From: a virus
Virus genome (UHGV): UHGV-0014568
DNA length: 37,204 nucleotides
Direction: 5' to 3' (one strand)
Positions 11,697 through 32,026 of this stretch are shown here, one piece after another. The notes below the pieces were generated by a model, which saw nothing but the letters and a program-made list of their open reading frames with translations, was not told the origin of the DNA and did not search any database. The translations under genes were made by a program, and so were the position numbers. How positions within the stretch are numbered: position 1 is the first letter of the stretch; the number at the start of each line of letters is the position of its first letter.

Positions 11697-11733
11697 TTGA
11701 CATTTAACGCACGAATTATTACCTTTTAGGTAA
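11697..11733 (+). promoter_or_regulatory. Promoter-like region (TTGACA at 11697-11702) with TTACC-N5-GGTAA palindrome (11719-11733) upstream of the tRNA cassette
   Basis: Consensus -35 hexamer; no good -10 at canonical spacing; operator-like palindrome TTACCTTTTAGGTAA overlaps the expected -10/+1 region. Confidence 0.35.
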
Positions 11734-12055
11734 GCAAATGGTTCATTCCAGTTATTAACCTGACTGGCTTGTCGTTAAATTGAACAGGTGGAGTGAGCTT
11801 TTATTTTGAGCAGTACGGCGTATGGCACATGCGCCGATAGCGGTCTGGATACGTTTAAGGGGCACCCTCCCTTGCTCGGGCAAACGAACCAGGTAGCCGG
11901 AATGTGCAAGTCGAGCGGTTTTATTCCGCGCACGGGGATTCACCATCCCGGCGATTCGGTGTGACGCCTCGGAAGAGACGAGGATACAACGATGAGAGCA
12001 TTTCTGGAGCCGCGACAAAGTGTGGCGCCTTAACAGGCTAAGTGCTCTCAGCGTT

Positions 12056-12132
12056 GTGGCATTAGCTCAGTCGGACAGAGCAACCGCCTTCTAAGCGGTT
12101 GGTCGCAGGTTCGAATCCTGCATGCCACGCCA
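12056..12132 (+). tRNA. tRNA-Arg (anticodon UCU, reads AGA)
   Basis: Hand-folded cloverleaf: acceptor GTGGCAT/ATGCCAC, D-stem GCTC/GAGC, anticodon stem ACCGC/GCGGT with loop CTTCTAA (TCT at 12090-12092), T-arm GCAGG-TTCGAAT-CCTGC, discriminator G and encoded CCA. Confidence 0.85.
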
Positions 12133-12330
12133 GAATCACGCCTAAGGACCGTGATGCCAGAAGTTCCAGGTGCTTGGCGGTGATGGTTTCCCTTGAAGGA
12201 CTATCACCGCCCTTTTTACAGCAGGACGCCATTGCGATGACTTCATGCTGTAAACCAGTACAGCCACGGAAGGCATAACTCATTGCTTCCAGTTCGCCCG
12301 GTTCGCCGGGCATTTTTTTAAGGTGAGATT

Positions 12331-12687
12331 ATGAACGACCAGCAAATCGAAAAAGAAATCGTTGAGAAAGGCAAAACGGCACCGCGCGTTACGCCCCAAT
12401 ATATCGAAAGCATCATTCTTGAAGAGCATTTCTTTACTGCTTATGACGGTATTCGTGCCGCCAGTATGGGCGTTGGCGATACGTGGACAGCGCATAAATC
12501 TACAAACCTCCTTACTTTCTGCGTACTGGTGCTGAAGAATGGCTTCACCGTCACCGGAGAGAGCGCATGTGCAAGCCCGGAAAACTTTGATGCAGAAATT
12601 GGTCGGAAGATTGCCCGGCAGAATGCTGTAAACAAAATCTGGATGCTTGAAGGTTACTTGCTGAAGCAGAAGTTAAGCGAGCAATAA
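12331..12687 (+). CDS. Small moron protein, possibly phage Gp49/Sf6 gene-66-like family
   Basis: 118-aa ORF with AAGGTGAG RBS; opposite orientation to the flanking structural genes; family assignment is recollection of a conserved FFTAYDG...GDTW...NGFTVTGESAC pattern. Confidence 0.45.
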   Translation: MNDQQIEKEIVEKGKTAPRVTPQYIESIILEEHFFTAYDGIRAASMGVGDTWTAHKSTNLLTFCVLVLKNGFTVTGESACASPENFDAEIGRKIARQNAVNKIWMLEGYLLKQKLSEQ

Positions 12688-12691
12688 CACC

Positions 12692-12703
12692 GTGACATGT
12701 CAC
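12692..12703. repeat. 12-bp perfect palindrome GTGACATGTCAC (copy 1 of 3)
   Basis: Exact palindrome 5 nt after the stop of the plus-strand moron gene and just before its terminator. Confidence 0.8.
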
Positions 12704-12707
12704 AAAC

Positions 12708-12734
12708 AGCCAGCCTATGAGCTGGCTTTGTTTT
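12708..12734 (+). terminator. Rho-independent terminator for the tRNA/moron cassette
   Basis: 7-bp stem AGCCAGC/GCTGGCT with 6-nt loop followed by TTGTTTT. Confidence 0.6.
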
Positions 12735-12777
12735 ATCCTCACCAGAGGATATCAACGACATTATCCCCACCAGCGGA

Positions 12778-14253
12778 TTAAGCATAGGGATCGTAATCTG
12801 TAATGGCCTTGCCTTGCTGGTTCTGCTGACCTGGAATTCGCAGACGCTTCGACACAGGGAAAGCAAACGTCAGCAGTAGCGCATCGCCTTTACCCGGCGA
12901 ACGCCCAAGACGCTCTTTGATATCTTCCTTCGGTTCGATAACGATTTTACCGTCCACACGAACTTTGTACTCTGCCGCCGACAGGTCGTCTGCTGTTTCC
13001 TGGTCATCCAGTATGCCGCCCAGCCTCAGCCATGTCTTGCATGAATTGAACATCTCCCCACGCTTGTTGAGCATCTGCGGGTCAGTAGACGCGCCACCGA
13101 ACGGAACAAGTTGCCATGTACGACCCCATCCGTCACCGATTGACTTCAGACCGGTTCCGTAACCGAAGTCGATGAACACCGCGTCAGCCTGGTACTGGTC
13201 TTCAAAGTCAGCGATACGCTTCGCCATAATCAGATCGTCGGTGGTCTTGTTACCAGTCCATAGCACCTTACTGTGCAGCCCCTGCCGCAGGTATATCACC
13301 GCGTCATCAACGCCTGAGTATGCCGGGTCAACGCCGATTATCACCGGAGCATGTGCAACCTGCGCAGCGGTTACCACCCGTTTCATTGCCTCATCAGTAA
13401 GACCGGTAGGGATAAACTGCAATTCAGATGCATCAGGGAATATGCCGCGCACACGGATTTTAACGAAGTCGCTGTCTTCCCCGTAGTCATCAACCCATTT
13501 CTGCAACTGCTGTTTGTTAGTGCCTTCCACCGTCCGGCTGTCAATCTGCGCACACTTCCAGCGGTGTTTGTACTTGCGGAAACATTCACGGAAACGCCCG
13601 GTGTTACGCGTCGGGTTCCCGAACGCCACCCAGATGATTTCGGTGTCTTCGTCCGTCAGCGCACCCTCTGCTACCTCCCACACCAGATCGGCAATGTTCG
13701 ACGCTTCATCGAATACCACGATGATGCGTTTGCGCTCGTTGTGTAGTCCGGCGAATGCCTCAGTGTTGTGCTCAGACCAGGGGATTGCGTCAGCTCGCCA
13801 CCGCTTGTCGTGCCCAGGATCATTGCTGTACATCGCGGTAGCGGTACAGGTAAACCAGTCTTTCGTGATAGCAAGGTTCGACCACTTGATAATTTCCGGC
13901 CAGGTCTTCGTTCGTAGCTGGTTGTCGGTGTTGGCGGTCACCACGACCTTACAATCCTCGCAAGTGGACATGCCCCAGTTGATCAGCATTGAGATGAATG
14001 CGGATTTACCAATACCGTGACCAGAAGCGCGTGCCAGCATAAGCGGCTGATAGCGCGTCTCTGGATTCTGCAGGTGATCACGTATCTCTCGGAACGCATC
14101 AGCCTGCCACTGACGTGGGCCGGTGGCATGTGCCAGTTCAGTCCCCTCTTCCCCCCACGGGAACGCATAGAGGGCATAGCCAAGCGGATCGTGAGTGAAC
14201 CCTGCAATATCCTCGATCAACTGCTCTTCAGGAGATAACGCTGTATCTGTCAC
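12778..14253 (-). CDS. terL: Terminase large subunit
   Basis: 491-aa ORF; Walker A-like GHGIGKS near the N-terminus; overlaps terS by 4 nt; GTG start per ORF track. Confidence 0.85.
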   Translation of the reverse strand: MTDTALSPEEQLIEDIAGFTHDPLGYALYAFPWGEEGTELAHATGPRQWQADAFREIRDHLQNPETRYQPLMLARASGHGIGKSAFISMLINWGMSTCEDCKVVVTANTDNQLRTKTWPEIIKWSNLAITKDWFTCTATAMYSNDPGHDKRWRADAIPWSEHNTEAFAGLHNERKRIIVVFDEASNIADLVWEVAEGALTDEDTEIIWVAFGNPTRNTGRFRECFRKYKHRWKCAQIDSRTVEGTNKQQLQKWVDDYGEDSDFVKIRVRGIFPDASELQFIPTGLTDEAMKRVVTAAQVAHAPVIIGVDPAYSGVDDAVIYLRQGLHSKVLWTGNKTTDDLIMAKRIADFEDQYQADAVFIDFGYGTGLKSIGDGWGRTWQLVPFGGASTDPQMLNKRGEMFNSCKTWLRLGGILDDQETADDLSAAEYKVRVDGKIVIEPKEDIKERLGRSPGKGDALLLTFAFPVSKRLRIPGQQNQQGKAITDYDPYA

Positions 14254-14846
14254 TGATTACCATCCTGACGTTCTTTGAGTCGCTTCCTGGCTGCTGCTAT
14301 GCGATCAGCAATTGTCACATTCACATTAACATCCAGACGTTCTTTGAACGCGTTGACATCAACATGCTTACCAATCAGCTCAAGGTTCTTCACCTTGTCA
14401 GGCCATTTAATTTTTTTGAGGATTGTCTCTATCGAATCCTCGTTCATGTTCATGATGGTCGATGACAGATCAAAGCCACTAAGCGTAGTGCGCCAGATTT
14501 TCGGCCACTCACGGATTGGTTTAAGGCTCCCATCGTCGTTGAGGATGTCGATCACGTCCATCTGGTCGATCTCCACCAGGCGCATGAGAACGTAATCAGC
14601 ACTGACGCGCATTCGTTTGTTGCGCTCCTCCATCAACTCGGCAATCCGTTTTTGAATGCGTTCATCGCGCATCATGACACTGGCTTTAACTGCCGCTGTA
14701 TTTGGGGAGAATCCTGCGTTAATCGCTGCCTGAGTCTGGTTTTCAGGCGTTTTGATGTATGACTGGCAATAAGCCTCCTGCATTGCCGTTAGTGGCTTAA
14801 ATTGCGTTGATTTGCGTTTATAGGTTTTAGGTTCAGCAGGCATCAT
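14250..14846 (-). CDS. terS: Terminase small subunit
   Basis: Immediately upstream of and overlapping terL; ORF track starts at TTG 14924, but the in-frame ATG-ATG at 14846/14843 with a GGTGG RBS is the more likely start (about 198 aa). Confidence 0.65.
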   Translation of the reverse strand: MMPAEPKTYKRKSTQFKPLTAMQEAYCQSYIKTPENQTQAAINAGFSPNTAAVKASVMMRDERIQKRIAELMEERNKRMRVSADYVLMRLVEIDQMDVIDILNDDGSLKPIREWPKIWRTTLSGFDLSSTIMNMNEDSIETILKKIKWPDKVKNLELIGKHVDVNAFKERLDVNVNVTIADRIAAARKRLKERQDGNQ

Positions 14847-14863
14847 AACCACCGTGGTAATAG

Positions 14864-14878
14864 TTACCGTTGTGGTAA
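14864..14878. promoter_or_regulatory. TTACC-N5-GGTAA palindrome (TTACCGTTGTGGTAA) in the terS leader
   Basis: Exact operator-type palindrome 18 nt upstream of the preferred terS ATG, flanked by GTGGTAATAG direct repeats. Confidence 0.5.
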
Positions 14879-14956
14879 TAGTACCATGCAAAATAAAGCC
14901 GCCATAGTTGGCGGCAGTATTCAAAACACGTCAAATTCATCATGCATAATCTACTC

Positions 14957-14968
14957 GTGACATGTCAC
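14957..14968. repeat. 12-bp perfect palindrome GTGACATGTCAC (copy 2 of 3)
   Basis: Exact palindrome overlapping the stop of the upstream 115-aa ORF, about 110 nt upstream of the terS ATG. Confidence 0.8.
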
Positions 14969-15312
14969 ACTATTAATTTCGTTTCATGCCAGCCTTTAGT
15001 CACCCAGCATTGCGAGTCACCATTACACGGGCATGAATTAACTGGAACTCTCTCGCCGCACTTACCGCAACGTTTTCTGCTGATCGATTTTATACGCCCG
15101 CGCACACGTGCATCATCCTGGCGGATCAGCAGCGCGATGTACTCGGCCATTTCATAGGGATCGCGACCAGGGCGCCGGGCGGCGCAGTTCCGCGCCAGCA
15201 TTTCCTGCTCCTGCTTATCCAGCACCAGTTCAATTTTGCGCTCACCGGCGGCGGACTGCCGAGCGCGCTGCGCGGCTTTGCGTTCTGCGGGGGATTTAGC
15301 CACGAACCGCAC
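14965..15312 (-). CDS. Arg-rich protein with C-terminal Cys cluster, unknown function
   Basis: 115-aa ORF (GTG start); C-terminal CGKCG...CPCNG zinc-binding-like motif; start uncertain; overlaps the small ORF 15296..15418. Confidence 0.3.
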   Translation of the reverse strand: MRFVAKSPAERKAAQRARQSAAGERKIELVLDKQEQEMLARNCAARRPGRDPYEMAEYIALLIRQDDARVRGRIKSISRKRCGKCGERVPVNSCPCNGDSQCWVTKGWHETKLIV

Positions 15313-15418
15313 TCCACGCCAGATTGATTAATGACTCCCAGGTAATATAAACCCGGATACCAGCAGCCAGGCCGAAACCAATCACCATGGCATAAAGCAG
15401 AGCGTTGCACTTGTTCAT
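15296..15418 (-). CDS. Possible 40-aa single-pass membrane peptide
   Basis: ATG shares one base with the upstream stop (TGATG); hydrophobic core ALLYAMVIGFGLAAGI; below the ORF-track size cutoff; conflicts with the 115-aa ORF start. Confidence 0.25.
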   Translation of the reverse strand: MNKCNALLYAMVIGFGLAAGIRVYITWESLINLAWSAVRG

Positions 15419-15999
15419 CAGTTCACCTCCTGCGGTGGTTCCGGTAGCGGCATCCAGTGAGTTGAGCTCTCTACTTCGACGCCGTCTTTGTCCACAAAAG
15501 CCATCTTATTCCCGCCACGAGTGGGGCAAAAAACCTTATCCCAAGAACCGGGGAATACATTACCGAGATCATCGAGAAGAATCACATCGCAATATTCAGC
15601 AGGAACTGCATCACTACAGCTTATCCAGCCAGCCGGAGTTACCGGAGGGGTACCCGATAGCGCATTCTGCTCCAGTGATGCTTTTACAAACCACGCTGCC
15701 TGAACTATTACGCCATGAATCCAGCGCAAATCAGCATCGCGATCGTTCTTTTTCATCTTTTCACCACTTAAAGCCTGGCTTATGTGGCTGCATACTAGGT
15801 TTTCATGTAATTCCTTCGCATCCTCAATGGTGAAACCACCAGGTAAACGCCCCGGAGTTACCGGAGAGTTGCCAGCCTTGCGCATGGCAATTTCCACGAT
15901 TTCAACCATATCTTCTGGTGGAATTTTACAATGCTGGCCAATATGCCTCTGCTGTCTGGCATACTCGAGGATGTGCTCCAGCTTGGTTCGATTAATCAT
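15418..15999 (-). CDS. DUF551-like phage protein
   Basis: 193-aa ORF; C-terminal GWISCSDAVPAEYCDVILLDDLGN...THWMPLPEPP matches my recollection of the DUF551 pattern. Confidence 0.45.
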   Translation of the reverse strand: MINRTKLEHILEYARQQRHIGQHCKIPPEDMVEIVEIAMRKAGNSPVTPGRLPGGFTIEDAKELHENLVCSHISQALSGEKMKKNDRDADLRWIHGVIVQAAWFVKASLEQNALSGTPPVTPAGWISCSDAVPAEYCDVILLDDLGNVFPGSWDKVFCPTRGGNKMAFVDKDGVEVESSTHWMPLPEPPQEVN

Positions 16000-16442
16000 G
16001 ATTTATCTCCCTTAAGCATGGCGGCGCGGCAGGCTTCATCAACCATAGCTTCTACGTTTTCGAGAAGTACGTAACTGTACTGCTGCCCGCTAACCCATTC
16101 TTTTCTGCGAGGTAATGCGCGTGGGTCCGCTACAATGGCTCGCAAACGTTCCAGAACAGCTGGTACTGCTGGCGCTGGCGTGGCAGTGTATAGCGCCGTT
16201 GTACCCATCGGCTTATGATTGCATTTCGGGCAAACGTCGTTCTCTCGCCAGTCCTCAATTGTTTCCCACCCGCAGCGACAACATTCGTAACTGATGTAGT
16301 CAGGTTCTGCCTCCAGCGATGCCAGAGCAATCCGTGCCAGCTCTTCCGCTTCTTCTGCTGGCAGTACAACGTTGCTACCAGGTCCGTATGTTTCGCGCCA
16401 CTGCTTGATTGTCAGCAGTCGCTCTTTGGTAATAGTGTTCAT
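15996..16442 (-). CDS. Zinc-ribbon protein, unknown function
   Basis: 148-aa ORF with CCRCG...CPKCNH motif; 4-nt overlaps with both neighbours. Confidence 0.4.
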   Translation of the reverse strand: MNTITKERLLTIKQWRETYGPGSNVVLPAEEAEELARIALASLEAEPDYISYECCRCGWETIEDWRENDVCPKCNHKPMGTTALYTATPAPAVPAVLERLRAIVADPRALPRRKEWVSGQQYSYVLLENVEAMVDEACRAAMLKGDKS

Positions 16443-16804
16443 GCCGTAGCCCCTTCTTGATATTTTTCAAACCAGAACACAACCGGGTCAGATTTCATTT
16501 CAACCAATCCCATACGAACCAGCGCCTTGCCTTTCCCGGACGCAAGGAATTCACGACGACCATCACTGATAATTCGCCGATAATCTTCCAGGCTACTGCA
16601 ATGCTTGTGCAGATTGCATGGGTGGCATGCCGGAACCATGTTGGATATATCGTCACGATCCTGGTGAAGCATATTTCCATCAAAACGAATGACCGGTTTT
16701 ACATGGTCTGCATGCCACTTTTCGCCAAGTTCGCAGCCGCAATAAGCGCAGCGACCACCAAACTTCATGCGCAGCTCTGCACGTTGTTTTTTCGTCAGTG
16801 CCAT
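16439..16804 (-). CDS. HNH endonuclease
   Basis: CAYCGCEL...HADHVKP...CHPCNLHKH motif set; ATG at 16804 with AAGGAAAG RBS preferred over the longer track ORF (start 16894). Confidence 0.7.
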   Translation of the reverse strand: MALTKKQRAELRMKFGGRCAYCGCELGEKWHADHVKPVIRFDGNMLHQDRDDISNMVPACHPCNLHKHCSSLEDYRRIISDGRREFLASGKGKALVRMGLVEMKSDPVVFWFEKYQEGATA

Positions 16805-16805
16805 A

Positions 16806-17024
16806 TCAGCTTTCCTTATATGGATTAATTTTATTGTGCAGTGTGTTGAACGGGGCCCATACCACGTCGTTATACAATTCAATAACTGGCTCAATTATTT
16901 TCCCGATTGCCCAGACAAAAATTAGCAGGGATATCGGTATCATCAACACGACAAACAGAATGAGAAACAGAAATTCTACAGCCCTGTTTTTTCGCGGATA
17001 TTTTTTTCTGAATAATGTGACCAT
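16806..17024 (-). CDS. Small single-pass membrane protein
   Basis: 72-aa ORF; basic N-terminus followed by hydrophobic stretch LFLILFVVLMIPISLLIFVWAIG. Confidence 0.35.
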   Translation of the reverse strand: MVTLFRKKYPRKNRAVEFLFLILFVVLMIPISLLIFVWAIGKIIEPVIELYNDVVWAPFNTLHNKINPYKES

Positions 17025-17157
17025 TCATTACCGCCCTTCCGGGCGGCCTCCTGATGTTCTGAGGGTACAGAAATCCCTCCGGTTAAGGATTTAATAAAAA
17101 TCACTTCTGATTTAAATTTTCAGTGTTTTGTTGTCATGTGGTTTATCGCCTTTATGC

Positions 17158-17463
17158 TTAAGCCTTATTTCTCAGCCATACACAAACAGGACCATCTTCA
17201 GTGTCATGAATGGAACCAATGAACCAGCCTTCACCTTCCGGGCGCTCCGGTTTCCAGGAGGCAATATCGGGACCATCCGCGTCCAGATTAAAATCATCTT
17301 CATCCATAGTTCTGATGGTCCATTGAAGATTATTTTCCTCCATCCATGCGTTAAACTCTTCCGTTGAAATAAGTTCTCTAGCATCACAGAATTTTTCATA
17401 TTCAGGATGCGTCCAGCAGCCATATTCATCACGTACTACTGGTATTTCTCTAATTTCATTCAT
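17158..17463 (-). CDS. Hypothetical acidic protein
   Basis: 101-aa ORF in the nin-like block; overlaps the upstream gene. Confidence 0.4.
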   Translation of the reverse strand: MNEIREIPVVRDEYGCWTHPEYEKFCDARELISTEEFNAWMEENNLQWTIRTMDEDDFNLDADGPDIASWKPERPEGEGWFIGSIHDTEDGPVCVWLRNKA

Positions 17464-18288: not shown

Positions 18289-18349
18289 CTTTACCCTCGC
18301 TTATCCACATAACTTATTGATTACATTGATAACTAAAAAGATCGTCGAT

Positions 18350-18694: not shown

Positions 18695-18697
18695 GAT

Positions 18698-18774
18698 TTA
18701 CCCCTAAGGTAATTAAAAACCACATAAGACACGAAATCAATAGATTTTAGAATATTTTATTACCTAACAGGTAA
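18698..18774. promoter_or_regulatory. Intergenic control region with two TTACC-N5-GGTAA palindromes
   Basis: TTACCCCTAAGGTAA (18698-18712) and TTACCTAACAGGTAA (18760-18774) flank an IHF-like AATCAATAGATTT and an AACCACATA motif, between the P-like gene and the nin-like genes. Confidence 0.5.
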
Positions 18775-18794
18775 TTATCGAAACGTAAAAAAAT

Positions 18795-18811: not shown

Positions 18812-19612
18812 TTACTTGATAAATCCTGACGCCTTTCCCCGCCTGTATTCCTCCATCAGCCACTGCGCCGGTGTTATTCCCCCCAGGGTGGCGGCGTTAG
18901 GCATACACCCGAAACTTCGCCCTGGTGGATGGTAAACGTCTCTCCCTGTGTCCGGAGGCGTACTCATGGGTTCTGGCTTTGCCTGTATGCTGATCACCGG
19001 ATCGGGTATCTGCTGTCCGGAAGCCACCTTTTTCGCCCAATCATCGAGCAGCCTGCGCGCGTGTTTCTCAACCTCAATCTCGCTAAGCTGGCGCTGATAC
19101 ATTGCACGGCGGGTATCACATACGACCCAGTACATAACCGGATGCCGCCACGGGAATCTTTCGGGACCACCAGGATATAAACTTTTTTCCTTGCTGTACC
19201 GGTGAAACTCCGTCATCACATCGTCAATGGTGACGCCAAGAACCATCTTGCTGTCTTTGCACCACTTGATGAATTGCCCTGGCGACGGCCAGAACGGAGA
19301 ATCACTGGCGCGGGCGTGGCGCATACCAGCAGAAACCTGTTCACGGGTTCGGATCCCCCCTTCGGCAAACGCAGCAATCCACTGCTGTTTTGCAGCAACT
19401 TCCTGCTCTGGCGTCTTCAGGTTGGTTACCACTGCCGCCGGAAACAGTTGTTTCAACTGTTTGAAAAGGGCATCAACAAGCCTCTCTGCTGACATGTTCA
19501 CTACGTTGTCATTGTTGGTGTACTGATGCTCATAACCTGACATGCGAGAAAGGGCCTCTCCGTCACGGTTTTGTATTGCGGTAAAAACGTTGTTCACAAG
19601 AAATCCTCCCAT
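18812..19612 (-). CDS. Replication protein P-like helicase loader
   Basis: 266-aa ORF; segment QWIAAFAEGGIRTREQVSAGMRHARASDSPFWPSPGQFIKWCKD parallels lambda P (QWVLAFRENGITTMEQVNAGMRVARRQNRPFLPSPGQFVAWCRE) from memory. Confidence 0.7.
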   Translation of the reverse strand: MGGFLVNNVFTAIQNRDGEALSRMSGYEHQYTNNDNVVNMSAERLVDALFKQLKQLFPAAVVTNLKTPEQEVAAKQQWIAAFAEGGIRTREQVSAGMRHARASDSPFWPSPGQFIKWCKDSKMVLGVTIDDVMTEFHRYSKEKSLYPGGPERFPWRHPVMYWVVCDTRRAMYQRQLSEIEVEKHARRLLDDWAKKVASGQQIPDPVISIQAKPEPMSTPPDTGRDVYHPPGRSFGCMPNAATLGGITPAQWLMEEYRRGKASGFIK

Positions 19613-20457
19613 GCTTCAGGGCTGTTCCAGTGCGGAACGTTGTTATCAGGTAATGTTGATTGCTTCTGTCTGCTAATCTGCAGCCGCCTTGCCAGCTTCT
19701 GCTCCCACTGTGCCTGATGGTATGCCTTACCCTCAGCCATCCAGTAAATTCTGAACTCTGCAAGTTCCTGTGCCGTTGGCAGACTGTCCAGGTAGATCCC
19801 CTGCAATGAGCTTTTCCGAAGAAAGTCATCTGATGGCTGCCATTGTTCATGCATGACAAATTTGCCTAATTGCCCTGGCCCACCAGGAGGAACAAAGTTA
19901 TTCATCACGGCGTTGTTTGCGCCGGGGTCATGAGGCACAGAATTCCCGTTTTTTGTCCTGCTCTCCCTCTCTTGGTTAAATGACTGGTTATATGACTGGT
20001 TCTGGATCCCGTTTTTGGGATCATTCAACATCCCGTTTTTGGGATCATTCAACATCCCGTTTTTGGGATCATTCAACATCCCGTTTTTGGGATCATTCAA
20101 CATCCCGTTTTTGGGTATATTCCCGTTTTCGGTAACATTACCGTTTTCGGGTTCATTACCCCCTTCCCGGTTGCCTTTAATGTTCCCGTTTTTGGTTATA
20201 TTAAGAGAGAAAACCCGCACTCTTTTCGTCGCTCCCTTTCTCTCTCCGGTATCTGAAATAAGCCCCATTTTCATGAGCGATATAAGCCCGGCCTGCACGG
20301 TTTTTTTATTCAGGCAAGTGTCTTTAACGAGGCGTTCTATGCTGGGGTAGCAGAGGTTATATTCATCGGCTCTGTCAGCCATCGAGAGCAGTATGAGCTT
20401 TAATGATGAGCTGCCTGGATCTGTCTCCCAAGCCCAATCTGTTGCATGTCTGCTCAT
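19594..20457 (-). CDS. Replication initiator (O-like position) with DnaT-like C-terminal domain and internal iteron-encoded repeats
   Basis: 287-aa ORF; C-terminal GKFVMHEQWQPSDDF...YWMAEGKAYHQAQWEQKLARRLQ resembles E. coli DnaT; contains GMLNDPKN x4 encoded by the 24-bp iterons; GGAG RBS. Confidence 0.65.
   Translation of the reverse strand: MSRHATDWAWETDPGSSSLKLILLSMADRADEYNLCYPSIERLVKDTCLNKKTVQAGLISLMKMGLISDTGERKGATKRVRVFSLNITKNGNIKGNREGGNEPENGNVTENGNIPKNGMLNDPKNGMLNDPKNGMLNDPKNGMLNDPKNGIQNQSYNQSFNQERESRTKNGNSVPHDPGANNAVMNNFVPPGGPGQLGKFVMHEQWQPSDDFLRKSSLQGIYLDSLPTAQELAEFRIYWMAEGKAYHQAQWEQKLARRLQISRQKQSTLPDNNVPHWNSPEAWEDFL
20006..20101. repeat. Four perfect tandem 24-bp direct repeats (ATCCCGTTTTTGGGATCATTCAAC), probable replication-origin iterons
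   Basis: Exact head-to-tail copies at 20006, 20030, 20054 and 20078, followed by degenerate CCCGTTTT(C/T)GG copies to about 20215 and preceded by a TGACTGGTT x2 repeat; all inside the replication initiator gene. Confidence 0.7.
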
Positions 20458-20753: not shown

Positions 20754-20800
20754 TTACCTTTAAGGTGCGAATAGATATGAAAAGACCGCCGGATGGCGGC
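20754..20800 (-). promoter_or_regulatory. Region after the cro-like gene: operator-variant TTACCTTTAAGGTG plus GC hairpin (possible tR1-like terminator)
   Basis: 5-bp GC stem CCGCC/GGCGG followed on the minus strand by CTTTTC; also a copy of GAATAGATATGA. Confidence 0.3.
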
Positions 20801-20823: not shown

Positions 20824-21054
20824 TCATGAGTAGAAGAAGTATGCCAGTTCTGCTTTTGAGCGCAGCCATTGTCTTGTTTTACAGGCTTTAAAAAGCCCAT
20901 TCATCAATACCTTACCTGGCATTTTGCGCTTACCTGTTAAGTGAGTCTGGATATAGTGACTCGTCGTTCCGGCTTCCTGTGCGAAGGCTTCACGCTCATC
21001 CGGAGTAAGTGCAAGCCAGTGCTTTTTGAAATCGAAATGTCCGTTATCGCTCAT
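20824..21054 (-). CDS. Cro-like small HTH regulator
   Basis: 76-aa ORF divergent from the repressor gene across an operator-rich gap; HTH-like segment LTPDEREAFAQEAGTTSHYIQTHLTGKR; first gene of the long minus-strand series. Confidence 0.5.
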   Translation of the reverse strand: MSDNGHFDFKKHWLALTPDEREAFAQEAGTTSHYIQTHLTGKRKMPGKVLMNGLFKACKTRQWLRSKAELAYFFYS

Positions 21055-21091
21055 AGCTATTGCCTGATATTTATTTCAGATAATAAATATT

Positions 21092-21185
21092 CACCCATAA
21101 GGTAACAAAAATCAAGGATAGTTACCTATGGGGTGCATTTACCTGTTGGGTAATATTGCTTTAAATTGAATCATCTACTGATTCA
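21092..21185. promoter_or_regulatory. OR-like divergent operator/promoter region
   Basis: Inverted pair CACCCATAAGGTAAC (21092-21106) and GTTACCTATGGGGTG (21121-21135), exact TTACCTGTTGGGTAA (21139-21153), and a separate perfect palindrome TGAATCA-N5-TGATTCA (21167-21185). Confidence 0.6.
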
Positions 21186-21208: not shown

Positions 21209-21793
21209 ATGAAAAGTATCCAGGACGTCCGCAGGCAAAATCTCAACGACTTGATCGACCGTGAATTCAATGGTGTTCAGACGCGGATGGCAGAAAAACT
21301 TGGAACTCAGGCAAATCTGGTAAACCGCTGGGCTCTTGGCAAGAAGGTTATCGGCGACCAGGTTGCGCGAAAAATTGAAGCTGCCGCCAATAAACCCCGT
21401 AACTGGCTTGATATCGATCGCTCGCTTTCTCAAGAAGGTTTTCAGCCTGTCGGACCAAGCGACATTGGTCAGCTGGCGGCTCACAACCTGGAACGCTGGA
21501 TGAGCGAAAGCCGAGACCTTTCAACGCAGGGAAAACTTCACCGCGCATCCGGCGTCGCCCAGGTGACAATCAGCCGCCTGTTAAACAATGAGGTCAGCGT
21601 TTCCATTTCCACCCTGGAGAATGTTGCATCCGCATTCGGGCGTCACGGCTATGAATTACTGATTCACCCGCACGACCCTGCGACTATCAACTATGATCGC
21701 TCGCGCTACGCATTGTTACCTGAAACAGAGAAGGCAAAGATCGAAAGTTACATTGAATTTGTCATCAACCAGAACGAAAAAAGCAAACAATAA
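21209..21793 (+). CDS. Prophage repressor candidate (CI position) with two XRE-type HTH domains and no peptidase domain
   Basis: 194-aa ORF between the OR-like and OL-like regions, with its own terminator; two HTH-like segments (QTRMAEKLGTQANLVNRW and GVAQVTISRLLNNE); no Ser/Lys S24 autopeptidase motifs seen. Confidence 0.5.
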   Translation: MKSIQDVRRQNLNDLIDREFNGVQTRMAEKLGTQANLVNRWALGKKVIGDQVARKIEAAANKPRNWLDIDRSLSQEGFQPVGPSDIGQLAAHNLERWMSESRDLSTQGKLHRASGVAQVTISRLLNNEVSVSISTLENVASAFGRHGYELLIHPHDPATINYDRSRYALLPETEKAKIESYIEFVINQNEKSKQ

Positions 21794-21815
21794 AACTATA
21801 GTTTTCAGAAAGTAA

Positions 21816-21837
21816 GCCGCCTCATGGCGGCTTTTTT
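21816..21837 (+). terminator. Rho-independent terminator after the repressor gene
   Basis: GCCGCC-TCAT-GGCGGC followed by TTTTTT. Confidence 0.7.
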
Positions 21838-21850: not shown

Positions 21851-21927
21851 TTACCTTACGGGTAATTTTTTTAACTCATATCTATTGACAACAAACCAAA
21901 TACGCATAATTATTACCTAAACGGTAA
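21851..21927 (+). promoter_or_regulatory. OL/PL-like promoter with two TTACC-N5-GGTAA operators
   Basis: TTACCTTACGGGTAA (21851-21865), -35 TTGACA (21885-21890), CATAAT-like -10 region and TTACCTAAACGGTAA (21913-21927) just before the first gene of the plus-strand operon. Confidence 0.55.
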
Positions 21928-25698: not shown

Positions 25699-25701
25699 AC
25701 G

Positions 25702-26952
25702 TTATTCCCCCGCCATCCACTTCTCAAACTTCGACGGGGAGAACGGAATCAGATCCGTATGCTCCCCGTTAATCCAGGAATCAATCATATCGGCCCACTG
25801 CTGCAACATGTAGGCGCGCTGTCTGGCATATTCCGCTTTGTTATATACGGCGCGCACACCTTTCTGCTCATGTGCCAGAGCCTTTTCAATCCAGTCTGAA
25901 GGATAACCAGCCTCATGCAACAACGTACTGGCTGTACGGCGCATATCATGTACAGTGAAGTCCTGAATATGCTCACCATCTTCATTTATTATTTTCACCG
26001 TTCTGTCGATCAGAGAGTTCAGCGCGGCATTAGATAATGGCTTCCGGAAGTTGTAACGACCAGGAACCAGATATTCACTTCCACCAGCGCACATCTGCAA
26101 CCCGACCAATATATCCTGTGCCTGTTTAGGCAGGTAAATAACGTGCGCCCGGCTTCCCTTCATGCGGTCTGAAGGAATTGTCCATGTCCATTTTTTAAAA
26201 TCTATTTCGTCCCACGTTGCATTGGTGAATTCGCCTTTACGAACCATAGTGATAAGCACCAGTTTTAAAGCCATTTTCATAGTGCCCATAGCACCAATGG
26301 CATCCAACGTGCGGAAGAACAGGCCAATTTCTTCTGGTGTCAGTGTTCGCTCTCGTGGTTTAAATATGGCGATAGACGAAGGCTTAATGTCAGCCGCAGG
26401 ATTAAACAAACCATGACCACGGTCATTGGCGTGACGGTATACGCTGCTGATGATCTCCCTGGCCTGCACTGCTGTTGCCCGGCCACCGCGTTCGACAATC
26501 CGGTCACACAAATCACGAACCATCGATGTGGTAATTTCAGCCATCATTTTGTTGCCAAGAACCGGAAGTATGTCACGGTCGATCACTGCCTGCTTCATTG
26601 CGCGGGTACTTTCAGCCATGATGACGTGTTTCATATAACTGTCGGTATGTACCGCAAACGTCTCGGCACCACGAATCTTTTTGATACCGTCACGTTTAGC
26701 CGCAGCCGGCGACTGGCCTGCTTTAAGCAGCTTCTTTGCAGCAATCAGTTCTTCCCGCGCTTCTGCCAGGCTTATACCGTCACGCCCATACTGCCCGATT
26801 ACCAGTGTTTCGCGGCGACCGTTGATACGGTAGTCATAGCGAAACGAGACCGTACCTGACGTAAGCACAGCTACATACAGCCCGTCACGATCGGAGACTT
26901 TGTACAGTTTGTCCTGCGGCTTGAGGTTTTTCAATTTTGTATCGGTAAGCAC
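25702..26952 (-). CDS. int: Tyrosine integrase, P4-like family
   Basis: 416-aa ORF; N-terminus LTDTKLKNLKPQDKLYKVSDRDGLYV typical of P4-type integrases; C-terminal catalytic region with HDMRRT and Y-containing tail; GTG start. Confidence 0.85.
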   Translation of the reverse strand: MLTDTKLKNLKPQDKLYKVSDRDGLYVAVLTSGTVSFRYDYRINGRRETLVIGQYGRDGISLAEAREELIAAKKLLKAGQSPAAAKRDGIKKIRGAETFAVHTDSYMKHVIMAESTRAMKQAVIDRDILPVLGNKMMAEITTSMVRDLCDRIVERGGRATAVQAREIISSVYRHANDRGHGLFNPAADIKPSSIAIFKPRERTLTPEEIGLFFRTLDAIGAMGTMKMALKLVLITMVRKGEFTNATWDEIDFKKWTWTIPSDRMKGSRAHVIYLPKQAQDILVGLQMCAGGSEYLVPGRYNFRKPLSNAALNSLIDRTVKIINEDGEHIQDFTVHDMRRTASTLLHEAGYPSDWIEKALAHEQKGVRAVYNKAEYARQRAYMLQQWADMIDSWINGEHTDLIPFSPSKFEKWMAGE

Positions 26953-27269
26953 AATTCACCCGTATAGAAACCATTTTCATGACGGTATGAGAGTATACCT
27001 TTCGGGTAATACCGTCACCTATACCGTCGAAAAATGTGGTGTAGAGTGAATAGATATGAGTAGATATAAACAAAAACCCTCTGCAATTACAGAGGGTTAG
27101 GGAAGACATTGAATAGATATGATGTGCTATGAACTAGCTATACATCATTCCCACTCAATTATTTACGAAAGCCATAACCAATTGAGTGATAACATTTTTC
27201 CAAAACCTCATTTTTTTAGTACCGTTTTATATACCGTCACCGGAAATCAGTACCATGAAAAATGCCATG
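26953..27269. other. Candidate attP region with arm-type repeats
   Basis: TACCGTC core four times (26981-26987 inverted, 27010-27016, 27022-28, 27232-27238), (T)GAATAGATATGA twice (27048-27059, 27111-27122), in the gap between int and Rz. Confidence 0.35.
27064..27098 (-). terminator. Rho-independent terminator ending the lysis/late transcript
   Basis: 9-bp perfect stem AACCCTCTG/CAGAGGGTT with 6-nt loop, followed on the minus strand by TTTTTGTTTAT. Confidence 0.65.
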
Positions 27270-27752
27270 CTATCTTGTCAGGGTGTCATACTGTTTTTCG
27301 CAGACTCTTCCGGCTTCGGCTGCCCGGTCAGCATACTCTGCCAGTTGTCTGTTTCTCTCGAGAGATTTGCTGAGCACGTCGGCAAGCAAAACTCCGGTGT
27401 CTGCGGCTGACGTCCCAGCGCCGACAATGGCGTTATACTGCCTGAGCTGCTCACGGATGGCAAAGAGTTGTTGCTGCAACCTGCCAGCGCGAACGGCAGC
27501 ATCAAGAGCATCATTGCGCGCCTGGTCGATCCTCTGCTGAGCTTCACGTTCATTGGTCGCTTTCTCCCGTTCGTACTGCTTACGAATTCTCTCATCTTCA
27601 GCTTTGCGGTCTTCCTTAGCCTGCGCATACCCGGCGTCGTACTGACGACTGCCGTGTGCATTCCAGGCTACAACTCCTGATATTACCAGAACAGCAAGCA
27701 TCACCATGATAACCAACTGTTTCCAGTATGCTTTTGCGAATGCCCAGATCAT
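27270..27752 (-). CDS. Rz-like inner-membrane spanin
   Basis: 160-aa ORF overlapping the endolysin stop; N-terminal TM ([18 protein letters not shown]) then charged coiled-coil region. Confidence 0.6.
27278..27514 (-). CDS. Rz1-like outer-membrane lipoprotein spanin embedded in the +1 frame of Rz
   Basis: Signal peptide with lipobox ([13 protein letters not shown]), Pro-rich mature part; wholly inside the Rz gene. Confidence 0.5.
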   Translation of the reverse strand: MMLLMLPFALAGCSNNSLPSVSSSGSITPLSALGRQPQTPEFCLPTCSANLSRETDNWQSMLTGQPKPEESAKNSMTP

Positions 27753-28378
27753 ACCGCCAGCACCTTACTGGCAGTGATGTACCGCGCGCGCCGGTCGTCG
27801 ATGCCGTTCCGGCCACCATTGATAATCAGAGTTACACGTGCAATATCGCCGGTATACTTCATGCAACCTTTGCTGGAGAAGAACCACGCCGCGCTACGAG
27901 CCGCGTATTCGTCCTGCGCCAGCAGTTCAGGATTCTCCAGCAAGTCCACTTTCAAGCCGTTTCCGCAGTCACGATAGTTATTCAAACCGGTAATCTGGAT
28001 AAGTCCGCGACCTCGGTAATTCCAGCCATCACCAGGGGCATTGTTCCCCATGCGTTTGCTGTACACCAGATTGGCGATCGCTCTCTGGCGCTCAAGTGGC
28101 AACAGCGGTTCGCCTACGCGTCGCCCCAATGCGTTAGCCTGTCCCTGGGTGAGACGCCCAGCCCGAACGAAGTTAGCCAGTCCGGTGACGCTGTAGTTGA
28201 AATTTTCCTGCAACCGGGTGAAGCCCACAGACTCATGCCCGACCTGAGCAATAAACATTGCCTGATCTTCGGGTTTGCTTATTCCAAACTCTTTCATCGC
28301 TGAAGTTATATGCGAGAACCAGCGTGCAGCCAGTGCCTCGCTAATACCAGCAGCTCGCTGGAATTGTTTAATCTCCAT
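27749..28378 (-). CDS. Endolysin, glycoside hydrolase family 19-like
   Basis: 209-aa ORF with GAGG RBS; [16 protein letters not shown] motif typical of GH19-type lysins; no N-terminal signal-anchor. Confidence 0.7.
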
Positions 28379-28676
28379 ATTTAGACCTCGTTATTTTGAA
28401 AATCTGAACGACGTTACCGCGCGTTTTAATAACCGCAGCAAGCATGACAGCGTTGATAATGACCTCAGATAAATCCACAACCATTGGCGTGCGTAACCAG
28501 ATTGCATAAACAACACGAACAGGGATACTGGCCGCTGCAACAATCAGGAAATAAGCAAGCCACCCACCCCATCTCCTGTGTTGAGAACCGTTTCTCCGAA
28601 ATGTGGCAACTCGAACTGCTATACCGGCGCAAATAGCCGCATTGGTGATAAGCAAAAAAAGCTCATGAGTTACCAT
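28368..28676 (-). CDS. Holin (three predicted TM segments)
   Basis: 102-aa ORF immediately upstream of and overlapping the endolysin; three hydrophobic stretches; GGAG RBS. Confidence 0.5.
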
Positions 28677-29067
28677 CGTCTTTTCTCCCCGGAATTAACT
28701 CGCGTGGATTATCGGAACGGTGATAGAGCCAGATTCCAATTCGCACTGCGACGATTGCTGACACAAATGCACCGGCAGAGAAAACAATCCCTTTCTCGAA
28801 AGAATCCTGTGTGATTGTAGGGATCAGGCTGGCTATGCCGATAAGAATTGATGCTGCTGGTTTGTAGAATAGAAGTCCGCATAGAAAGCTAAGCATCGAC
28901 AAAAGCACGCGACGACGAATTGGATACTCTACCGCAGAGGTAACAAAAATTACCGCCCCAGACAAAGACCCCAAAGCAACCTCAGGAGGAACACCGGCCA
29001 CAACCGCAATAAAAGAACTAACACTAAGCCACTGATTTAAAGACTCACTTGTTAGTTGAACTGACAT
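28663..29067 (-). CDS. Multi-pass membrane protein of the lysis cassette (second holin or antiholin candidate)
   Basis: 133 aa from ATG 29067 with GGTGG RBS (track's longer ORF starts at 29157); several hydrophobic segments; overlaps the holin start. Confidence 0.4.
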   Translation of the reverse strand: MSVQLTSESLNQWLSVSSFIAVVAGVPPEVALGSLSGAVIFVTSAVEYPIRRRVLLSMLSFLCGLLFYKPAASILIGIASLIPTITQDSFEKGIVFSAGAFVSAIVAVRIGIWLYHRSDNPRELIPGRKDDGNS

Positions 29068-29168
29068 AAAAACCACCGTTTCATGTGCATGAAGAACCCA
29101 CTTATTTGTGAGTTCATCATACACAATAAACCATATGTGGTTAAACCATAAAGACAACTATCTTGTCT

Positions 29169-31907
29169 TTATTGGATAATATGGAACGAATTTTTAACAT
29201 GAATAGTAGCAGAATTATTACTATTATTAATTAAAGCGATCTTCCCGCCAGAATATCCGGGAACAGCCTGTTGAACAGTTCCGCCAGTAGTGGGTTTAAC
29301 TGTTATTGTAGGTACTGACCCTGCCAGGCCAGCTGTAAGCTTGACCTCACCTGTCACATCGCAAGTCAATGTGCCGACAACAGTAAGAGCGCCGAAAAGC
29401 ATTGTTGAAATCTCAATTCCAGTTGAAGTTCTCTTTGCAACAACTCCGCTTTGTGAAGTAGGTTTATAGTAAAAAATCACTCCACAGCCAACAGGAATTG
29501 ATGATAAAGCAACGTTTTGAACATTTGGTGATTTAGTTGCACCATACATATCAGGAGATTCATCATTAGCAGTTTCTGCCGCATACGACAATAACAAATC
29601 AGCTCTATCCCTTACCTGCCCATATACTCCTTTTATTGCATTTTCAGCAAGATACACTGAAGCGCTTTGCGAGCATGACTCTTTCAAATCTCCTCTAAAC
29701 AACAGCCCTGGTGGATATACTTTTGATGGCGTACCATCGTAAATAATCTCAATCTGATTAAGTCCTTTTTTAAGGGTTCCAAGGTGAGTGGTTAGTTTGT
29801 TTGTAAACGATGAGACGCCATTACTAGCGATATTACCAGAACTAAATGCTGTATTACGGATATCTTGTTGTCGGATAGAGATGGAGTTAGCGCGACCGTT
29901 TGCAACATATGTTGGGTTATACGGCTCAAAAACAACCAATGATATATCAGAAGTTTCACACCAGACAAAATATCGTATGGTTAAATTTTCAGTAGCTGGG
30001 TAAACCACGCCCCAGCCAGTTAGACCATTTAGATACGTGTCTCCACTCAACCGCTCCATACCAACGCTGTACGTGCTACCAGACGGGAAGCCAAATGGCT
30101 GGATATCATTATCAACTGTTGGTACGAAGTTATTCCCTTTTTTCGCAGTGTGGACTCTATACGGCATAACAGCCTTTGCTGCATATGCGCCGATATATTG
30201 ATGGCCCAGAGGAGCAAAATGCGTGCTATCAAAAGTGCCATCTGTCGGGCGCCGAGCAATATCTTCAAGCGTATAGCTTCCGAGGTCTCTGTACATCTCG
30301 GTTACTGGCTGAGAGAGATCGAGGAACTCTACCGCAGGGAACAGGCGTTCAATATGCTTCTTAATTGATGCTTCGAGAGCCGCCCATTGTGAGCCATTCT
30401 GGTTCATTGAAACAACGCAGACGGCACATCCGTAACCCCATGCTTTACGGATAAACTGCTCAAAACGGAATAAATACTGATCGAACCCTAACGTATCAAG
30501 TTGTCCGTTATCGTTAACGCCCATGGATATGAAGCAAACGTCTGGCGGCACGTTTCCGTATGCAGTGTTTTTGAAGAAGCCATGGTCAAAGTTACGATTC
30601 GCCCACCCGTCAATGAGTCGCTTTCCAGAAGATGCGCAGTTTTCAGCCTTAAATATGTAAGCACTATTTTTAGTAAATCGGTTAAGCCAGTCGGTAAATG
30701 TGCGAAACCAAGAACCTGAACCACCATTACTATTGTGATCGTAGTTAGTTGAAGATAGGTCACCATTAGAATCGGTTGGATTAGCTGACCATCCAGCACC
30801 GTATGCGCCGTCAGTGATTGAATCACCAACGATACCAACACGACATAGCGTATTGCGGCGAGCGAACTGGTTTATTACGTTGAATGCAGTGTATTTACTG
30901 CCATGAGTTGCCAATCCAACATCAAATATGTGCTCATTCCCCCATGGATCTCTGGTGAGAATTTTTCCTTCACCGATAAATTTTGTCACATCATCATCTG
31001 GCAGGAAATTGCAGCGTAGCTGAACATCCTTCGGAACATAAATTTGTCCAGTATAAGCGTATACTGCAGCGCGGTTATCTGTCTCGCTATCAATGACTAC
31101 CCCAGGAACATATTTCACGGCTAATGCATCATTGCGATATTTACCGTTGCTTAGCTCTGTCCTTAATACAGCATCACCTACACCTATCCATGCCCCTGGA
31201 CCAACACCACCAGTAGTGGTAGGAGTTGATCCAGGCGGAACTACTTTGGGCAGTGGCCCATCCCATCTGTAGTATTCGCCGTTGCTTTCCCAGAGAAGAA
31301 CATCGTTAAGATAGATGATGGTATTACCCAACTCAAAAGATTTCTTCGTGTTATAGCCATACAATCCATTTTCTAAGGTTTCAATAATGGTGCTAAGTAT
31401 GGTACTAAATTTTGCATAAAGATCATCAGTATATTTTTTTGTAGCAGCATCTTGGGGAAGAGATGGATCACGAAGATTTCTAATATAATTTGAAAGCGCG
31501 TCATAAAAAATTGCTACGTCATTTGGCTTTCTTAAAGCCAACTTATCATTTCTTAATGATTGTTGAATGAGCATAGTAAGTTTATCAAACGCATCCTCAT
31601 GTACCTCAGCGAAGAACTTACCCTGATTACGTAAATCCGTTTCCTGAGTAGCTGGTAGTTCTCGTGATATAGATATCTGATGACCGTTAGCCAACGCCTT
31701 CGAGAGAATTACATTACCGCCGTTGTACCCTCCCGCTCCGGTGACGATGTAATCTGTATCAAGAACCAGTACGTTTATATTCTCGCTAATGTCAACAACC
31801 TGTACTACCAGATCTGATTTTTTGAAGATCCTAAATTTGTAAGGGAATGTCGTCGTAACACCATTGCCAGTGTATTCGTTGTGGTTAACTTCGGTTGAGA
31901 CCGTCAT
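29169..31907 (-). CDS. Tailspike/tail fibre with T7-type N-terminal attachment domain and SGNH (GDSL) esterase domain
   Basis: About 912 aa from ATG 31907 with GGAGA RBS (track ORF starts at 31949); N-terminus VNHNEYTGNGVTTTFPYKF resembles podovirus fibre N-terminal domains; SGNH blocks GDSITDG (Ser codon at 30819-30821), GVNDNG and DSTHF. Confidence 0.7.
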   Translation of the reverse strand: MTVSTEVNHNEYTGNGVTTTFPYKFRIFKKSDLVVQVVDISENINVLVLDTDYIVTGAGGYNGGNVILSKALANGHQISISRELPATQETDLRNQGKFFAEVHEDAFDKLTMLIQQSLRNDKLALRKPNDVAIFYDALSNYIRNLRDPSLPQDAATKKYTDDLYAKFSTILSTIIETLENGLYGYNTKKSFELGNTIIYLNDVLLWESNGEYYRWDGPLPKVVPPGSTPTTTGGVGPGAWIGVGDAVLRTELSNGKYRNDALAVKYVPGVVIDSETDNRAAVYAYTGQIYVPKDVQLRCNFLPDDDVTKFIGEGKILTRDPWGNEHIFDVGLATHGSKYTAFNVINQFARRNTLCRVGIVGDSITDGAYGAGWSANPTDSNGDLSSTNYDHNSNGGSGSWFRTFTDWLNRFTKNSAYIFKAENCASSGKRLIDGWANRNFDHGFFKNTAYGNVPPDVCFISMGVNDNGQLDTLGFDQYLFRFEQFIRKAWGYGCAVCVVSMNQNGSQWAALEASIKKHIERLFPAVEFLDLSQPVTEMYRDLGSYTLEDIARRPTDGTFDSTHFAPLGHQYIGAYAAKAVMPYRVHTAKKGNNFVPTVDNDIQPFGFPSGSTYSVGMERLSGDTYLNGLTGWGVVYPATENLTIRYFVWCETSDISLVVFEPYNPTYVANGRANSISIRQQDIRNTAFSSGNIASNGVSSFTNKLTTHLGTLKKGLNQIEIIYDGTPSKVYPPGLLFRGDLKESCSQSASVYLAENAIKGVYGQVRDRADLLLSYAAETANDESPDMYGATKSPNVQNVALSSIPVGCGVIFYYKPTSQSGVVAKRTSTGIEISTMLFGALTVVGTLTCDVTGEVKLTAGLAGSVPTITVKPTTGGTVQQAVPGYSGGKIALINNSNNSATIHVKNSFHIIQ

Positions 31908-31961
31908 GTTAAATCTCCAGATAGTCGCAGCACCCGTTGCGCCGCACATCCGGTCATTCTA

Positions 31962-32026
31962 TTACCTGAAAAACCACATATGGATAGATAACCCATAAAT
32001 ACGAACAGATATCACCTTTCAGGTAA
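31962..32026. promoter_or_regulatory. Long-range inverted repeat TTACCTGAAA ... TTTCAGGTAA with AACCACATATG motif between tailspike and the LexA-box gene
   Basis: Half-sites at 31962-31971 and 32017-32026 are exact reverse complements, 45 bp apart; AACCACATATG at 31972-31982. Confidence 0.4.

Follow-up and report, generated by a model that had tools for sequence, protein, structure and literature searches.

The virus genome UHGV-0014568, a stretch of 37,204 nucleotides that we call the window, contains a dispersed palindrome, TTACCNNNNNGGTAA (TTACC-N5-GGTAA), whose copies we propose to be the operators of a repressor (Rep) of the type described in phage SPC32H, which would act promoter by promoter by repressing the initiation of transcription. 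We put the probability of this reading at about 0.8. The sites adjoin predicted promoter elements at the starts of transcription units, after terminators. As the preliminary description of this DNA had noted, they are found well beyond the early regions that resemble OR and OL: they also stand before terS, before gp3 and a transfer RNA (tRNA) unit, after the replication genes and beside the tailspike gene. The operator-like character that this description attributed to the palindrome is supported by the homology of Rep, by the layout of the OR region, by conservation in related phages and by the annotation of phage epsilon15. Judged by its sequence, the window is a temperate podophage of the phiV10/epsilon15 type, genus Uetakevirus; over 5 kb around the immunity region it shows about 97% identity to Escherichia phages phiV10, PAS61, phiv142-3, ZX5 and TL-2011b. 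Its orientation is reversed relative to the phiV10 record, and the late genes lie on the minus strand. We compared it with six relatives, phiV10, epsilon15, SPC32H, Tyrion, BUCT554 and BUCT711, whose hosts are E. coli, Salmonella, Enterobacter and Klebsiella and whose Rep proteins range from 99% down to 42% identity to that of the window.

All seven exact copies listed in the preliminary description were recovered, beginning at positions 11719, 14864, 18698, 18760, 21139, 21851 and 21913. The computed expectation is 0.01 copies in the window, in agreement with the earlier estimate of far less than one per 37 kb, and a similar frequency is not seen in shuffled sequence, where 0 of 100 dinucleotide shuffles reached seven exact copies. 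When one mismatch is allowed, the window holds 13 sites where 0.51 would be expected. Among all palindromes with 5-nt arms and spacers of 0-12 nt, surveyed without bias, TTACC-5-GGTAA was the commonest; it has 7 copies, whereas no palindrome exceeded 2-3 copies in random sequences of the Markov-1 type. The second commonest corresponds to an iteron array at 20016-20107. The variants described earlier are present as well, with coordinates that had been off by one (21091-21105 and not 21092-21106, 21122-21136 and not 21121-21135, 20754-20768 and not 20754-20767), while the supposed split pair by the tailspike gene is actually a full site with one mismatch (32012-32026) plus a half-site (31962-31966). 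Two sites are additional to that description: 14846-14860, with one mismatch and 18 bp from 14864, and 26995-27009, also with one mismatch and ambiguous. Non-coding DNA, which makes up 7.6% of the window on an approximate gene map made in this analysis, contains all seven exact sites, four of the six one-mismatch sites and two sites with two mismatches. The one-mismatch matches in coding DNA (15639 and 28929) are as numerous as chance would give, and about 12 sites in the window are credible.

The candidate reader of these sites is the 194-amino-acid product of rep (21209..21793, plus strand), a full-length homolog of SPC32H Rep that matches 5d50_A with E = 3.5e-42 over residues 1-190. According to this homolog, it is built of an N-terminal helix-turn-helix (HTH), a middle dimerisation domain and a C-terminal domain for tetramerisation and binding of the antirepressor Ant. 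Its Pfam matches are to Cro/C1-type HTH families only (HTH_3, HTH_26), and no Peptidase_S24 domain was found in the Pfam search. The recognition region N36-L-V-N-R-W41 is invariant in an alignment with five family members, as are C-terminal residues. Divergent from rep lies the gene for a Cro-like regulator of 76 amino acids (20824..21054, minus strand), which belongs to the phrog_35 'transcriptional repressor' family. Ant itself, of 85 amino acids (32103..32360, plus strand), is a full-length homolog of SPC32H Ant (5d50_E, E = 1.7e-47). Its gene probably starts at ATG 32103 and not at TTG 32085 of the longest reported open reading frame (ORF), and is preceded by a LexA box, TACTGTATAAATATACAGTT, at 32064-32083 (CTGTAT-N4-ATACAG at 32066-32081), the arms of which are conserved in six genomes. 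The Rep/Ant lytic switch of SPC32H is reportedly the subject of papers by Kim and Ryu in 2013 and by Kim et al. in 2016. In two further sources, SPC32H Rep is a dimer or a tetramer depending on its concentration; palindromic DNA is bound by the tetramer, in which each DNA-reading pair is formed across dimers, and Ant takes this tetramer apart (PMC9638917, PMC9986798); as presented there, induction follows the loss of LexA from the ant promoter, upon which Ant dismantles the Rep tetramers. The window resembles SPC32H (PDB 5d4z, 5d50) in Rep, in Ant and in the presence of the motif at the same junctions, and it also has the LexA box before ant.

Three sites fill the 155-bp gap between the divergent genes of the 194- and 76-amino-acid proteins, that is, the tripartite operator OR. 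The exact site O3 (21139..21153) is nearest to rep and overlaps TTACCT, a -35-like element of a possible rep promoter; O2 (TTACCTATGGGGTGC, 21122..21136), with two mismatches, is 17 bp from O3; and O1 (21091..21105), with one mismatch, lies in the spacer of a predicted cro-ward promoter, whose predicted -35 is the block TTGATTTTT, invariant in 6 genomes and enclosed by the three sites. After the cro terminator (20802-20783), a variant with two mismatches (20754..20768), of which only the GGTAAT half is invariant, stands 17 nt upstream of a TTGATC -35; the CAAAAT -10 of the putative replication-operon promoter and a degenerate proximal half-site follow.

The leftward early promoter (PL) and the junction after the replication genes share a stricter design. 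At PL, the distal exact operator (21851..21865) is directly 3' of the rep terminator (21814-21833), and the proximal one (21913..21927), also exact and 62 bp away, adjoins the -10 AATTAT of a predicted TTGACA-17-AATTAT promoter (21885-21913, plus strand). In the post-replication cassette, the distal exact operator (18760..18774) comes after the terminator of the replication genes, and the proximal exact operator (18698..18712), again at 62 bp, adjoins the -10 TTTAAT (18717-18712, minus strand) that goes with the -35 TTGATT (18740-18735); the right half of this operator also serves as the Shine-Dalgarno sequence of a DUF1064 gene. All six genomes show the same order at both places: terminator, distal operator, about 19 nt, an invariant CTATTGA(C/T) as -35, 17 nt, -10, proximal operator, Shine-Dalgarno sequence and ATG, the last T of the -10 being the first T of the proximal operator. 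The spacing of 62 bp is kept in 6/6 genomes after the replication genes and in 5/6 at PL (63 bp in BUCT711). Epsilon15 and BUCT711 have a third PL operator beside the start codon.

Before terS, the gene map runs from the end of the gp49/p55-like regulator gene through a terminator (14915-14898) and GCATGGTACTAT to the exact operator O1 (14864..14878), which adjoins TGGTACTAT (14886-14878, minus strand). GCATGGTACTAT contains TGnTAnTAT, a match to an extended -10 that is kept in 6/6 genomes while the n positions vary, and the register of this element to O1 is the same as that of the -10 elements of PL and of the post-replication cassette. The second operator, O2 (14846..14860), overlaps the Shine-Dalgarno sequence GGTGG, adjoins the terS ATG (14846/14843) and is located at about +19 of the predicted start. 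A paired arrangement at 17-18 bp is common to terS O1-O2 and OR O3-O2. A sigma-70 scan returned no promoter at the terS pair; the idea of a promoter-less roadblock at this place was demoted to a minority view after the six-genome alignment revealed the conserved extended -10. In BUCT554 and BUCT711 (L005 7860-8240 and L004 34-420, respectively), an extra UmuD/HumD-like gene with an N-terminal GFPSPAxDY motif is inserted between the gp49-like regulator and terS, and possesses a strong promoter of its own overlapped by a LexA box, TACTGTTTAAAT(G/A)TACAGTA.

The next late junction is a divergent region between the late head/tail operon that begins with gp3 (minus strand) and a unit made of tRNA-Arg and a gp66-like ORF (plus strand). 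The exact operator at 11719..11733 covers a TACCTT located 17 nt after an invariant TTGACA (11697-11702, plus strand), which points to the tRNA unit; across the genomes, the plus strand reads an invariant TATTGAC(A/C), 17 nt, then TACC(T/C)T within the operator. The minus strand carries a hybrid half-site, TGGTT-N5-GGTAA (11657..11671), which lies exactly 62 bp from 11719 and belongs to a nearly invariant 28-nt block, ATATGTGGTTAAATTGGTAATAATTTAA, upstream of gp3 that is a candidate gp3 promoter. Since the gp3-p21 operon is bounded by terminators and a convergent gene, it should have its own promoter at this junction, and its poor -35 hints at a late promoter that depends on an activator.

At the junction of ant with the tailspike gene, the ant ATG is followed in turn by the LexA box, an invariant CTGGATA, the one-mismatch operator 32012..32026, about 35 nt, CATATGTGGTTTTTCAGGTAATAGAAT, about 45 nt and the tailspike ATG 31907. 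The operator lies 14 nt upstream of the putative ant -35 (TGGATA). CATATGTGGTTTTTCAGGTAATAGAAT holds a second hybrid half-site, TGGTT-N5-GGTAA (31962..31976, minus strand), and adjoining it a TAGAAT -10-like hexamer (31961-31956, minus strand). The likely tailspike start is ATG 31907 and not 31949 of the longest ORF, because of a conserved Shine-Dalgarno sequence, GGAGA, and of the alignment with phiV10 and epsilon15. An element (C/T)(A/T)TATGTGGTT is shared by the gp3 (11657-11680), post-replication (18716-18726) and tailspike (31962-31985) cassettes. In the two late ones it gives rise to the TGGTT-N5-GGTAA hybrid sites immediately before the -10-like hexamer, and it may be where a late activator binds in concert with a Rep half-site.

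The remaining site, 26995..27009, has one mismatch, the same in all relatives, and is found 43 nt upstream of int. It is ambiguous because it overlaps ATACCGTC repeats that resemble integrase arm sites and because the epsilon15 record marks integrase binding there. These repeats, likely of the integrase arm type, are located at 26985-27035, 27144-27160 and 27225-27240 and flank CATCATTCCCACTCAAT, which is the reverse complement, save for the last base, of the attP core of phage ZX5, attgagtgggaatgatt (PMC9782041).

The same junctions carry the motif in the relatives, with 13-18 sites per genome at up to one mismatch against about 0.5 expected. Common to them are the pair before terS (18-20 bp apart), the site before gp3, the one between ant and the tailspike gene, the PL pair (62-63 bp apart), two or three OR sites, the site after the cro terminator, the post-replication pair (62 bp apart) and the site 40-60 bp before int. 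An extra site is present before the lysis cassette in those genomes that have a conversion gene between the tailspike gene and the lysis genes. Across the aligned junctions, pairwise identity is 0.93-1.00 at the ten arm positions, 0.36-0.72 in the 5-nt spacers and 0.62-0.69 in the other aligned columns, which is the pattern that a symmetric, dimeric HTH contact maintained by selection would be expected to leave. The 64 sites of the six genomes (alignments A1-A6) yield a symmetric 17-mer matrix, A-TTACC-N5-GGTAA-T, with arm differences of 0.00-0.19 between mirror columns. The arms, being palindromic, give a site no orientation; with each site read in the direction of its downstream gene, the middle base of the spacer is A in 50/64 and T in 5/64, counts taken over sites that are not independent, and proximal operators often read ...AACGGTAAC. 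This mild asymmetry of the spacer could stem from a shared ancestry of the cassettes or from overlap with the Shine-Dalgarno sequence.

Much of this distribution had already been marked in a sister phage. The RefSeq record of epsilon15 (NC_004775.2 / AY150271.2) carries seven 'protein_bind / repressor / lysogeny' features, annotated as 16-17-mers: 12-27 before terS, 2931-2947 before gp3, 19895-19911 between gp19(ant) and the tailspike gene, 32479-32494, 32554-32570 and 32616-32632 in the PL region, and 35906-35922 after the replication genes. They correspond one-to-one to motif matches, and the window sites fall in the same alignment columns. The statement in the preliminary description that such a distribution had not been described for this kind of phage therefore cannot be maintained: the dispersed distribution is already recognised in Uetakevirus, at least as a prediction, which is the status of the epsilon15 features. 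That record leaves unmarked the OR sites, the second members of the pairs and the promoter context, and the phiV10 record has no repressor-site features. The literature consulted on phiV10, epsilon15 and SPC32H, considered here apart from the primary epsilon15 and SPC32H papers, makes only generic statements about operators; the epsilon15 genome paper is said to be that of Kropinski et al. in 2007. Epsilon15 shares with the window its genus, the TTACC-N5-GGTAA core and the junctions, and differs by a Rep that is 43% identical. We thus regard the regulon of the window as the phiV10-type case of a system that is annotated in epsilon15 and whose mechanism has been studied in SPC32H. Our contribution consists of the full list of sites, the 62-bp cassette design, the register of the terS promoter and the operator at the start of every transcription unit.

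In the mechanism that we propose, Rep would be a non-cleavable tetrameric HTH protein that is inactivated by the LexA-controlled Ant. Intrinsic terminators would cut the genome into about eleven short transcription units, essentially each of which would start with one or two Rep operators: cro, replication, nin-like, recombination/early-left, terS-terL, tRNA/moron, gp3 head-tail and tailspike-lysis, possibly ant and int, and rep itself through autoregulation. As each unit is headed by a Rep operator, Rep would silence the units individually in the lysogen by blocking initiation. The 62-bp distance, about six helical turns, suggests that one tetramer, with its two DNA-reading units, could bridge both operators and wrap the promoter. 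By analogy with SPC32H, DNA damage would release LexA from the ant promoter, Ant would dismantle Rep and all units would open at once.

The preliminary description had likened the sites to the stoperators of mycobacteriophage L5. In this comparison bound Rep would halt elongating RNA polymerase and silence operons from within, and the location of repressor sites well outside the immunity region, including before virion genes, is indeed a feature that the window shares with L5. In its favour, the terS pair lies downstream of a terminator and over the Shine-Dalgarno sequence. In BUCT554 and BUCT711 this pair follows the humD-like gene under LexA control, no terminator separates the two, and Rep could prevent transcripts of that gene from running on into the terminase genes. 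Both terS O2, at about +19, and the third PL operator of epsilon15 and BUCT711 are downstream of predicted starts. However, the stoperators of cluster A mycobacteriophages (L5 gp71) are more than 20 asymmetric 13-mers, bound by a monomer in short intergenic gaps, oriented with transcription and dependent on this orientation (PMC9283540). They need a monomeric repressor with an HTH and a 'stoperator' domain, whereas Rep of the window has HTH_3-type Pfam matches and is the homolog of a tetramer. Its sites are symmetric, number about 12, and each adjoins a predicted promoter element at the start of a unit; the short gaps of the gp3-p21 operon (roughly 16 kb) hold no site with up to one mismatch, and those of other multi-gene operons hold no motif site either. 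The L5 likeness hence finds no support beyond the dispersion of the sites, and we consider stoperator action unlikely as a general explanation, a residual roadblock role being conceivable only for terS O2 and the third PL operator of epsilon15 and BUCT711.

One could also suppose that Rep operators are restricted to OR and PL, the late-junction sites being inert relics of a duplicated cassette or targets of the Cro-like protein, of terminase or of a late activator. The cassettes are visibly paralogous, with shared ATCTATTGA and TATGTGGTT blocks, those of gp3 and the tailspike gene retain a mere half-site at the proximal position, and the terS sites are where a packaging or terminase signal could also be. 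Relics would hardly keep arms that are 93-100% identical over six genomes while spacers and flanks have diverged. The same 15-mer with the same 17-18-bp pairing at OR (O3-O2) and at terS, together with the identical repressor assignment made by the epsilon15 annotators, also renders this view very improbable. As for a compositional or chance origin of the repeats, to which the AT-richness of intergenic DNA might lend some weight, it is next to impossible given the shuffling result, the Markov-1 maximum of 2-3 copies and the conservation of positions in six other genomes.

Several points nevertheless weigh against promoter-by-promoter repression by Rep as we propose it. The link from Rep to the motif is drawn from position, conservation and database annotation. 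At terS, the predicted promoter would be an extended -10 devoid of a -35, and the promoters that we propose for gp3 and the tailspike gene have poor -35 elements and were assigned by inference. The site next to int could be an arm site for integrase and not a Rep operator, and the 76-amino-acid protein may, by analogy with Cro, share the sites of Rep. Nor does covariation between repressor and operator offer an independent proof, the operator core being invariant across repressor classes. Relatives whose Rep is 42-78% identical share the identical core, which made this comparison uninformative; because the NLVNRW region is itself invariant, the core stays constant despite the divergence of Rep and a covariation test is impossible.

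A parallel can be drawn with phage P1, where each operator lies at a promoter and the late genes are controlled via the activator Lpa and are not known to be controlled by operators directly before structural operons. The P1 repressor C1 acts at 22 dispersed operators and loses its activity when the small antirepressor Coi binds to it non-covalently (PMC8546580). One repressor, many dispersed operators linked to promoters and a non-covalent antirepressor make this the closest functional resemblance among phages of Gram-negative bacteria. The P1 operators are asymmetric 17-mers, ATTGCTCTAATAAATTT, whereas the window motif is different and symmetric; the P1 C1 family does not appear among the Pfam matches of Rep, a comparison made at the level of families and not directly between the sequences of Rep and C1. 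With lambda, the window shares a tripartite operator between divergent repressor and cro-like genes and a second set of operators at the leftward early promoter. However, lambda CI cleaves itself under RecA stimulation (S24 peptidase domain), whereas Rep of the window is devoid of an S24 domain and its induction would proceed through an antirepressor. Operators in the window also precede the replication, nin-like, terminase, head-tail and tailspike units, in contrast to lambda, whose late genes depend only on an antitermination cascade.

A bolder and, in our opinion, doubtful extension would make Rep the sole switch of the lytic programme. With a Rep operator at the head of every unit, the three late ones (terS-terL, gp3-p21 and tailspike-lysis) among them, this family might need no lambda-like cascade of antitermination or activators; timing would then be set by operator affinity, 62-bp micro-loops and promoter strength, and terS O2 and the extra PL operator of epsilon15 and BUCT711 could in addition serve as genuine roadblocks to elongation in a podophage of Gram-negative bacteria.

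The sites and the regulator were already known in sister phages and do not constitute a new category. Our analysis maps the operators and the predicted promoters of the phiV10 type completely, which the public records of these phages do not. Since phiV10 serves as a reporter phage in work on E. coli O157:H7, it is useful to know which sites would have to be removed for derivatives that are obligately lytic or express constitutively. It also appears that a single tetrameric repressor controlled by an antirepressor gates each unit directly, closer to P1 than to lambda, and the 62-bp operator pair would offer a good natural test case for small-loop repression by a structurally solved Rep tetramer.

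The alignments bear on some gene annotations as well. The phiV10 terS (NC_007804.2 41-121), whose TTG corresponds to window position 14924, is probably annotated 26-27 codons too long: the conserved GGTGG Shine-Dalgarno sequence and the annotations of epsilon15, Tyrion and SPC32H place the start at ATG 14846 or 14843, and the annotated coding sequence would include the terminator and both operators (window 14843-14924). The tRNA-Arg(tct) gene (12056-12132, plus strand) is on the strand opposite to the late genes. Because it overlaps this tRNA gene, the ORF at 12062-12313 (minus strand), a homolog of phiV10p04, is probably not a real gene. Together with an Sf6-gp66-like ORF (12331-12687), the tRNA apparently makes up a small leftward unit whose transcription would start from the operator-controlled promoter at 11697-11733.

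A second palindrome, the perfect 12-bp GTGACATGTCAC, has three copies in the window (12692-12703, 14957-14968 and 32384-32395), where about 0.002 would be expected for a given 12-mer, and 2-3 copies in equivalent places in each of the six relatives. They mark the 3' ends of transcription units, at most about 30 nt from the last stop codon and beside an intrinsic terminator, the sole exception being the third copy of BUCT711 (26462-26473), within an annotated gene. The palindrome supplies the TGA of gp49/p55 and, in epsilon15, of gp18; it is not annotated in the epsilon15 record. Its junctions are where gene content varies most among the genomes compared. One may think of a termination enhancer or roadblock, of a boundary for module exchange or of a site for the gp49/p55-like regulator. 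This regulator was also considered as a Q-like antiterminator, an identity for which we found no support: it has no Pfam, NCBIfam or PDB match, only phrog_536 'transcriptional regulator'.

The iteron array mentioned above consists of four tandem 24-bp repeats, TGGGATCATTCAACATCCCGTTTT, at 20016-20107 within the gene for the replication initiator (19594-20457, minus strand), and thus represents an origin of the iteron type comparable to that in lambda O. Finally, the gene of a large virion protein homologous to phiV10p18 (minus strand) runs off both ends of the window (1-2448 and 36832-37204). The window thus has the appearance of a complete genome of about 37 kb, circularly permuted and opened within the gene of this protein.

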